A stretch of DNA of 64,000 nt from Escherichia coli (GTDB taxonomy: Bacteria > Pseudomonadota > Gammaproteobacteria > Enterobacterales > Enterobacteriaceae): assembly GCF_003991155.1 (NCBI RefSeq), contig NZ_CP031293.1; one strand, 5' to 3'. The notes below the pieces were generated by a model. The model was given only the letters and a program-made list of their open reading frames with translations, made no database searches and was not told the DNA's origin. Positions 59,639 through 60,864 of this stretch are shown one piece after another. The translations under genes and the position numbers were made by a program. Numbering within the stretch: position 1 is the first letter of the stretch; every line of letters begins with the position of its first letter.

Positions 59639-60094
59639 TCATTCGCTACGGCGGGCAATAATTTTTAGCGCAGCAATATTATGCGTCTTACGCCGTAACT
59701 GATCTAATCGTCTCATCCCTATTCGCCTGTCAGCAGCACGCAGAATATTCACTAACCCCCATTTATCGCTGGTAAATTGTTTTGTTAACAGCTCCGCTTT
59801 TGGGGTATCAATATATTCACGCAATAAATCTGAAATTGAACAAATATCCGTCAGGTATGGATACCAGCAAGTTTCACCGTGAAAATTACGCACTCCACCG
59901 TTACCTGCAATAAAGTCTTTCGGGTAATCCCAGACCACGTTTTTATCCAACGTGATCCAATAACGAGGTAAATCGGTGCTTCCACCATTTTGGCTGCGCA
60001 TGGGATAACGGGTACAGTGAATTTGCAGGTTGATCGTTGGCGTCAGTATGTCATAGATCTCCCGTTGTAACTTGCTCCATGGGCGTTGTGTCAT
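59639..60094 (-). CDS. Hypothetical protein (ykiA-like ORF), possibly a gene remnant
   Basis: 151-aa ORF MTQRPWSKLQREIYDILTPTINLQIHCTRYPMRSQNGGSTDLPRYWITLDKNVVWDYPKDF...; occupies the rdgC-ppnP interval where I recall ykiA in K-12; identification uncertain. Confidence 0.4.
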   Translation of the reverse strand: MTQRPWSKLQREIYDILTPTINLQIHCTRYPMRSQNGGSTDLPRYWITLDKNVVWDYPKDFIAGNGGVRNFHGETCWYPYLTDICSISDLLREYIDTPKAELLTKQFTSDKWGLVNILRAADRRIGMRRLDQLRRKTHNIAALKIIARRSE

Positions 60095-60579
60095 TGTTTT
60101 TCCTCAAGCCGGTGACGCGCTTCACTGCGAATTTTCCGCGTTGCCCCGGTTTTCACTAAATCACGTAACAGCGAAAGATCGGGTTGATCGACAAATAAGA
60201 GTAATGATGGATCCTCTTTTAATCACATCGTTTTCACATCGGCAGCCAACTGTGGATTATTAATAACCAACGCCCGATCCTGAGGCTCAGTCAATGTCGT
60301 TAACAAAGACGCCGGGGTATGTGCGTTGCGCAATGCCGTTTGGCGCAAATGATCATTGCGACTTTGCAGCAATGCACGCCACCATTCATCATCTGATTTA
60401 TCTTTTATCGTCGCCAGTTCCGCAACAATATCTGGAGATCTTCGCTGATATTTATATCAACCTTGATGAATTATGAATATATCGGAAATCGAAAAAATCC
60501 TAGCAAAGGAAATATTATTATGGGTTAAAGAGAGGACATTTCAGAAAAATGCCCTCCCGTTCAAGGGGAAGGCGAGAAA

Positions 60580-60864
60580 TTACAGATAGCGGCACAGATA
60601 AGAGGTGGGTTCGGCAACTTGCAGATGAAACTCGCTGTGACCGGGAACATTAAACACCGAACCGGCTTCATACACTTGCCAGTCGGTCGCGTCAGGCAGT
60701 AACACATTCAGCGCGCCACTGATTACCGTCATCTCTTCAGGCTCAGCGGTGCTGAAGGTGTATTCGCCTTCAACCATAACACCCACGCTGGCGCGACCAG
60801 TGCTGCTGCTGGAAAAGCCGATCGATTTCACTTTGCCGGAAAAGTACTCATTACTTTGAAGCAT
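60580..60864 (-). CDS. ppnP: Pyrimidine/purine nucleoside phosphorylase PpnP (YaiE)
   Basis: 94 aa [82 protein letters not shown]. Confidence 0.9.

Follow-up and report, generated by a model that had tools for sequence, protein, structure and literature searches.

The interval between ppnP and rdgC in Escherichia coli raises the question of whether the broken, protein-like sequence on its minus strand and the 151-aa open reading frame (ORF) next to it are the ruins of one large gene or belong to two separate genes. This was examined in a stretch of 64,000 nucleotides of contig NZ_CP031293.1 (assembly GCF_003991155.1), called the window here, in whose coordinates positions are given; its ppnP–rdgC locus is 100% identical to that of E. 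coli strain 2016C-3878. An earlier note, made from the letters alone, had described 59639-60580 as a decayed coding sequence broken by stop codons and resembling helical-repeat proteins, and had proposed that the 151-aa ORF, labelled ykiA-like, may be the surviving 3' portion of a larger pseudogenised gene. Our analysis indicates, with high confidence, that the interval instead holds a decayed module of two genes, a remnant of ykiA that has lost its 5' part and an independent, intact gene of the SF0329 family.

The minus-strand frame starting at 60699 yielded exactly the peptide quoted in the earlier note, and so the presence of decayed protein-like sequence between the 151-aa ORF and ppnP was confirmed. 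With its stop read as Trp, the peptide of the remnant matched the Pfam model PF10971 (DUF2773) over positions 1-81 of its 81 positions with 145.8 bits and E = 4.3e-43, the gathering threshold of the model being 25 bits. The Pfam match, the RefSeq annotation of the identical sequence and codon alignment to O157 and K-12 delimit a ykiA pseudogene remnant of 342 bp, 113 codons and a stop, at 60091..60432 (minus strand). Its DNA matches the 3'-terminal part of an intact 2280-bp gene of O157:H7 with 96.6% identity, and it corresponds to residues 647-759 of the intact O157 protein, with 104 of the 113 residues identical. The span 59639-60580 given originally does hold this remnant but is too wide, as it takes in the intact ORF (59639-60094) and intergenic DNA (60433-60579). 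Likewise, an internal stop is present, but there is one and not several: the TGA at 60225..60223, remnant codon 70 and residue 715 of the intact protein, where O157, K-12 and strain LHM10-1 have TGG (Trp). The head of the remnant is without a start codon of its own. RefSeq annotates the identical sequence of 2016C-3878 as a pseudogene for a DUF2773 domain-containing protein, with the remarks internal stop, incomplete, partial in the middle of a contig and missing N-terminus, and the next gene as an intact SF0329 family protein. The remnant thus combines an intact longer orthologue at the same position, the loss of the start codon and N-terminus, and a premature stop; judged by its reading frame, it is probably dead as a protein-coding unit. 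A ykiA/DUF2773 pseudogene at this position is already known and already in public annotation. The missing start codon and the internal stop would also be expected of frames open by chance in intergenic DNA, but a Pfam E-value of 4.3e-43, the DNA identity of 96.6% to the 3'-terminal part of the intact gene that occupies this position in O157:H7 and the RefSeq pseudogene call leave this explanation a vanishingly small probability.

The earlier note had suggested looking for an intact full-length orthologue and had taken the absence of any intact homologue and of a transcript as what would point to chance frames. An intact homologue was found within E. coli itself, at the same ppnP–rdgC position, in two strains. 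Strain 272 of O157:H7 has, between ppnP and rdgC, the 2280-bp gene (759 aa, WP_120795310.1) and then a 450-bp SF0329-family gene. Strain LHM10-1 has the same arrangement (WP_136698418.1), its module being 97.5% identical in DNA to the O157 module. In both alleles the large gene ends at the same TGA, after ...RHRLEEKQ, and the small ORF starts in another frame with a 4-base ATGA overlap. The suspicion that the decayed sequence is what is left of a much larger pseudogenised gene was therefore correct.

A whole-library HMMER search for homologues of the 759-aa protein gave 169 cluster representatives, of which some 35 are full length (750-800 aa, 25-35% identity). The AlphaFold2 model of the intact orthologue, built with an alignment of 42 of its homologues, reached a pLDDT of 91.6. 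It has an N-terminal signal-peptide helix, with a sequence ending ...NACA/TEW, a beta-solenoid at residues 68-176 and an unbroken alpha-helical repeat solenoid from about 240 to 758 (~500 residues), in agreement with the helical-repeat likeness that had been noticed in the broken translation. Foldseek returned for the solenoid generic HEAT/ARM proteins only (PP2A A subunit, importin, armadillo repeats and designs), with no specific fold neighbour and no functional lead. A sequence search of the PDB with the 759-aa protein gave no match, NCBIfam had no model matching the large protein, and a PADLOC-DB HMM scan of it and of the SF0329 protein found no family at E <= 0.1. The model predicts an exported protein in which a signal peptide and a beta-solenoid precede a HEAT/ARM-like alpha-solenoid. 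In it, the remnant accounts for about the last five to nine short helices (residues 646-758); the signal peptide, the beta-solenoid and the alpha-solenoid N-terminal to the remnant, all present in the intact DUF2773 proteins of O157 and LHM10-1, are gone from the window. The PF10971 match in the intact O157 protein is confined to residues 679-759. The DUF2773 "domain" is thus the C-terminal 81-residue end of a 759-residue solenoid protein that is predicted to be exported. It would seem that the truncated YkiA fragment served to define the Pfam model, and the limits of DUF2773 are probably not a structural domain boundary.

Alignment, which had been proposed for locating the inactivating mutations, placed a 5' deletion reaching to about codon 646 in addition to the TGA at remnant codon 70. 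BLAST comparison of the window with O157 gave two collinear blocks, one at 60900..60438, ending 1 bp before the ATG, and the other at 60432..59400, resuming at codon 647. Therefore about 1939 bp (~1.94 kb), codons 1 to ~646, are absent from the window; the missing segment is 17246-19184 of the strain 272 locus (L005). At the junction (60421..60447, minus strand) DNA 5' of the old start codon is joined to the interior of the gene, CAGCGAAGA being followed by TCTCCAGATATTGTTGCG, so that the sequence reads CAGYGAAGA, TCTCCAGATATTGTTGCG and GAACTG. The junction in K-12 is exactly the same. A single clean deletion by microhomology was considered first. Immediately before the ATG, the left flank closes with CAGTGAAGAT, which resembles CAGTGAGGAT at codons 643-645. 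However, five bases of the junction, CTCCA, are foreign to both flanks and complete an 18-mer, TCTCCAGATATTGTTGCG (60438..60421), that repeats codons 357-362 of the intact gene exactly (L005 18315-18332), which speaks against a single clean event. The 12-mer GATATTGTTGCG (DIVA) is present twice in the intact gene, at codons 359-362 and 646-649. Because the 18-mer matches codons 357-362, an origin by two deletions, or by a template switch at the 12-bp repeat GATATTGTTGCG, is favoured and would fit the junction better.

The 151-aa ORF (59639..60094, minus strand) proved to be a full-length member of the SF0329 family, named after Shigella flexneri SF0329. It matched PF25753 with 80.7 bits (cut-off 27; E = 1.7e-22) and NF049912 with 93.7 bits (cut-off 60; E = 1.4e-26), covered positions 2-160 of the 161 of the SF0329 model, and was 99% identical to the S. 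flexneri protein cluster. The ATG of the ORF shares bases with the TGA of the remnant (ATGA), and GAGGA stands 6-7 nt upstream of this ATG. The family comprised 540 homologues of about 150 aa from many phyla. Among the 120 matches listed, all were stand-alone proteins of 110-204 aa; sources among these matches included Leminorella, Paenibacillus, Prevotellaceae, Zoogloeaceae, Bradymonadia and Treponemataceae, with 55-66% identity. The ORF spans the whole conserved core of a 46-sequence SF0329 alignment, whose 23 invariant columns (S7 K8 Q10 ... N139 R149) include the window copy by construction, as one of the 46 rows. Its AlphaFold2 model is a compact domain (pLDDT 86.9), for which fold comparison gave no specific neighbour; a PDB sequence search found nothing significant (best E = 0.15). 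Relative to O157, the SF0329 gene carries 2 non-synonymous and 10 synonymous changes over codons 1-144, and the remnant 9 and 7, small counts in which part of the divergence lies on the branch of the intact gene. The contrast has the direction expected of relaxed selection on the remnant, though it falls short of proving a loss of constraint. The 9:7 ratio of the remnant is not fully neutral, as is expected given the contribution of the O157 branch with its intact gene. The 151-aa ORF is under purifying selection.

That the decayed sequence and the 151-aa ORF are one large pseudogenised gene, with the ORF as its surviving 3' portion, could be argued from their position, since the two overlap as neighbours on one strand, and from their GC content, which is lower in both than in the window (44-46% versus 51%), so that they probably arrived together. 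Yet the two are read in different frames; in O157 and LHM10-1, where the large gene is intact, it too ends at the TGA that overlaps the ATG of the ORF, and the small gene has an annotation of its own; each belongs to a Pfam/NCBIfam family of its own, SF0329 being the stand-alone family described above; and full-length DUF2773 homologues of 750-800 aa in other organisms (loci L016 and L017) have no SF0329 gene downstream. On these grounds the one-gene proposal is refuted, and we give it hardly any credence: the 151-aa ORF is a separate, intact gene, neither the tail of the large gene nor ykiA. The ykiA-like label was misplaced too, since in K-12 the name ykiA denotes the decayed remnant, and the 151-aa ORF has its equivalent there in ykiD; the ORF should be labelled as SF0329 family. 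No DUF2773 gene was found upstream in the SF0329 homologue loci examined. A strict coupling of DUF2773 with SF0329, whether as toxin and immunity protein or as an operon, was rejected as a general rule, as neither these loci nor L016 and L017 have the partner gene.

The SF0329 gene of O157:H7 strain 272 (L005 19523-19972) appears to have a frameshift near codon 145, ending in ...KNYCPP where the window protein ends in ...KIIARRSE, and therefore lacks R149, which is invariant in the 46-row alignment (O157 is not one of its rows). In strain 272, where the upstream gene is intact, the downstream gene may thus be slightly damaged.

The two-gene module that we prefer is flanked by candidate signals. 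In minus-strand order ppnP (60864..60580) comes first. Directly 3' of it, at 60551..60573 on the same strand, stands a terminator-like hairpin with a T-run, an 8-pair stem with 6 G-C pairs followed by ATTTTTCTGA; as a match to the consensus only, it would set ppnP apart from the decayed module. The 147 bp of ppnP-proximal intergenic DNA (60433-60579) are retained from the upstream DNA of the intact gene and are collinear with O157 up to the start codon. A consensus scan of the ppnP-ykiA intergenic region found a sigma-70-like promoter match, CTGAAA-16-CATAAT, at 60517..60544 (minus strand), the scan giving 3 sites where 2.3 are expected by chance. At the other end, where the SF0329 gene and rdgC converge, a REP-type palindromic element (59564..59614) lies between their stop codons, found as a weak match to Rfam naRNA4/REP-derived (E = 0.019). 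This REP-like match was the only one in an Rfam scan of 59300-60900, and it lies outside the remnant, within which there was none. The palindrome can be read in the sequence as GCCGGATAAGACGC...GCGTCGCATCCGGC. The GC content of the two-gene module (42-46%) is below that of the window (51%), as would fit DNA acquired horizontally.

For K-12, the transcription start of ykiA has been mapped by 5'-RACE, and BglJ-RcsB has been shown to activate its promoter, located between ppnP and ykiA (Salscheider et al., PMC3950696). The match CTGAAA-16-CATAAT is a candidate for this mapped promoter. In addition, the 27-aa protein YkiD (MTQRPWSKLQRKTHNIAALKIIARRSE) has been detected in K-12 via chromosomal tagging (VanOrsdel et al., PMC6001520). 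Therefore, the module promoter and the SF0329 start codon are active in K-12 despite the truncated upstream gene. By analogy, expression in the strain of the window would be the same.

Among 5426 complete E. coli genomes, 5418 matched this locus. At least 80% of the full module was found in 444 of the 5426 (about 8%), mostly O157:H7-like. The configuration of the window, a 5'-deleted remnant with an intact SF0329 gene, was found in 53 genomes; a subset of 42 carries an 812-bp allele 100% identical to the window, which therefore includes its TGA, and it is from one of these 42 (2016C-3878) that the RefSeq remark on the internal stop comes. The large majority of complete genomes have the remnant together with ykiD. 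In a further class, exemplified by strain XPFI_3_2, the remnant is deleted exactly up to the SF0329 ATG, and in that strain the SF0329 gene is frameshifted. The XPFI_3_2 junction (L004 1788-2244) reads GCGGAACTG directly followed by ATGACA, and the frameshift is seen as CGCCCCCTGG compared with CGCCCATGG in the window. Going by these alignments, the ppnP–rdgC locus is a graveyard of independent deletions, with the 372-bp loss that produced ykiD in K-12 and the loss of the remnant in XPFI_3_2 as separate further events.

From these alleles we infer the order and mechanism of the deletions. The ancestral state, still kept in O157:H7 and ~8% of complete E. coli genomes, would have been a 759-codon gene for an exported protein followed, with the ATGA overlap, by a 149-151-codon SF0329 gene. 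[quoted passage not shown] The TGG to TGA mutation would have added the internal stop later. The upstream promoter region and the downstream SF0329 gene would have been retained throughout, so that the remnant may now be only a transcribed 5' leader for the intact and probably expressed SF0329 gene.

A remnant that is not dead would have to be translated from an internal start into a short functional polypeptide, or give an RNA that regulates SF0329 beyond the role of a passive leader. The remnant with the same junction has been kept in most of the 5418 E. coli genomes matching the locus, its transcription in K-12 is driven by a regulated promoter (PMC3950696), and for a long time K-12 ykiA was catalogued as coding for a 113-aa protein of unknown function. 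However, in the window the TGA at codon 70 leaves as the sole in-frame start before it that of an unsupported 49-aa TTG ORF, and the scan with Rfam gave no match in the remnant. The lineage of XPFI_3_2 has lost the remnant entirely and has kept the SF0329 reading frame, albeit frameshifted, and, going by the structural model, a short helical fragment of a ~500-residue solenoid is unlikely to fold alone. Taken together, a function of the remnant itself seems improbable. The decayed two-gene module remains the preferred explanation, and as such the case is one of ordinary stepwise decay of a horizontally acquired low-GC module, with little bearing on biology at large.

The genes around SF0329 homologues provided a lead, not a result, on an immunity or defence role for this protein. 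Several homologues were found in long co-directional arrays of small ORFs together with SUKH/SMI1_KNR4, Imm10, Macro, UPF0167, DUF2314 and WGR+DUF4240 proteins. At two loci (L010 and L011) the array lies directly 3' of a tyrosine recombinase gene (Phage_int_SAM_4 and Phage_integrase Pfam hits), and the recombinase-headed arrays comprise up to about 19 co-directional small ORFs with 34% GC. This architecture was present in part at loci L008 and L009 and absent at the E. coli locus, L012 and L015; other SF0329 homologues were isolated or beside defence-type genes. High conservation across phyla, as seen in this family, is atypical for immunity proteins. We regard it as possible, though rather unlikely, that SF0329 is the functionally important part of the E. 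coli locus, an orphan immunity or defence factor that would have been kept by purifying selection in this lineage after the decay of its upstream partner and would be expressed from the old BglJ-RcsB-activated ykiA promoter via the dead remnant leader. The recombinase-associated orphan-immunity clusters of Bacteroidales, rAID-1 (Ross et al. 2019, bioRxiv 10.1101/471110), are the known systems closest to such loci: the array architecture of L010 and L011 matches that of rAID-1/polyimmunity loci, a likeness drawn from architecture and Pfam hits. In contrast, the E. coli SF0329 locus has neither a recombinase nor an array.

Within E. coli, a close known counterpart of the locus is that of K-12. 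The ykiA gene of K-12 (b0392), which RefSeq annotates as a DUF2773 domain-containing protein, incomplete and missing its N-terminus, shares with the window remnant the position between ppnP and rdgC, the 342-bp extent and the deletion junction, with ~97% DNA identity. It differs in that the TGG to TGA change at remnant codon 70 is found in the window copy and not in K-12. The second difference lies downstream, where the SF0329 gene, intact in the window, has been cut to ykiD in K-12. YkiD is what remains of the SF0329 gene after the loss of 124 central codons through an in-frame 372-bp deletion, which corresponds to window positions 60065..59701 plus a 7-bp microhomology. The start codon, the first 11 and the last 16 residues of YkiD (K-12 locus L002 2107-2190) are common to the 151-aa protein of the window, whereas the central 124 codons are absent, so that YkiD is a deletion remnant and not a member of a gene family of its own. 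If SF0329 is indeed an orphan immunity factor, K-12 YkiD would represent a second, independent step in the decay of the module rather than a genuine small-protein gene. That an experimentally "validated" small protein is a deletion remnant of an SF0329 gene calls for caution with small-protein catalogues.
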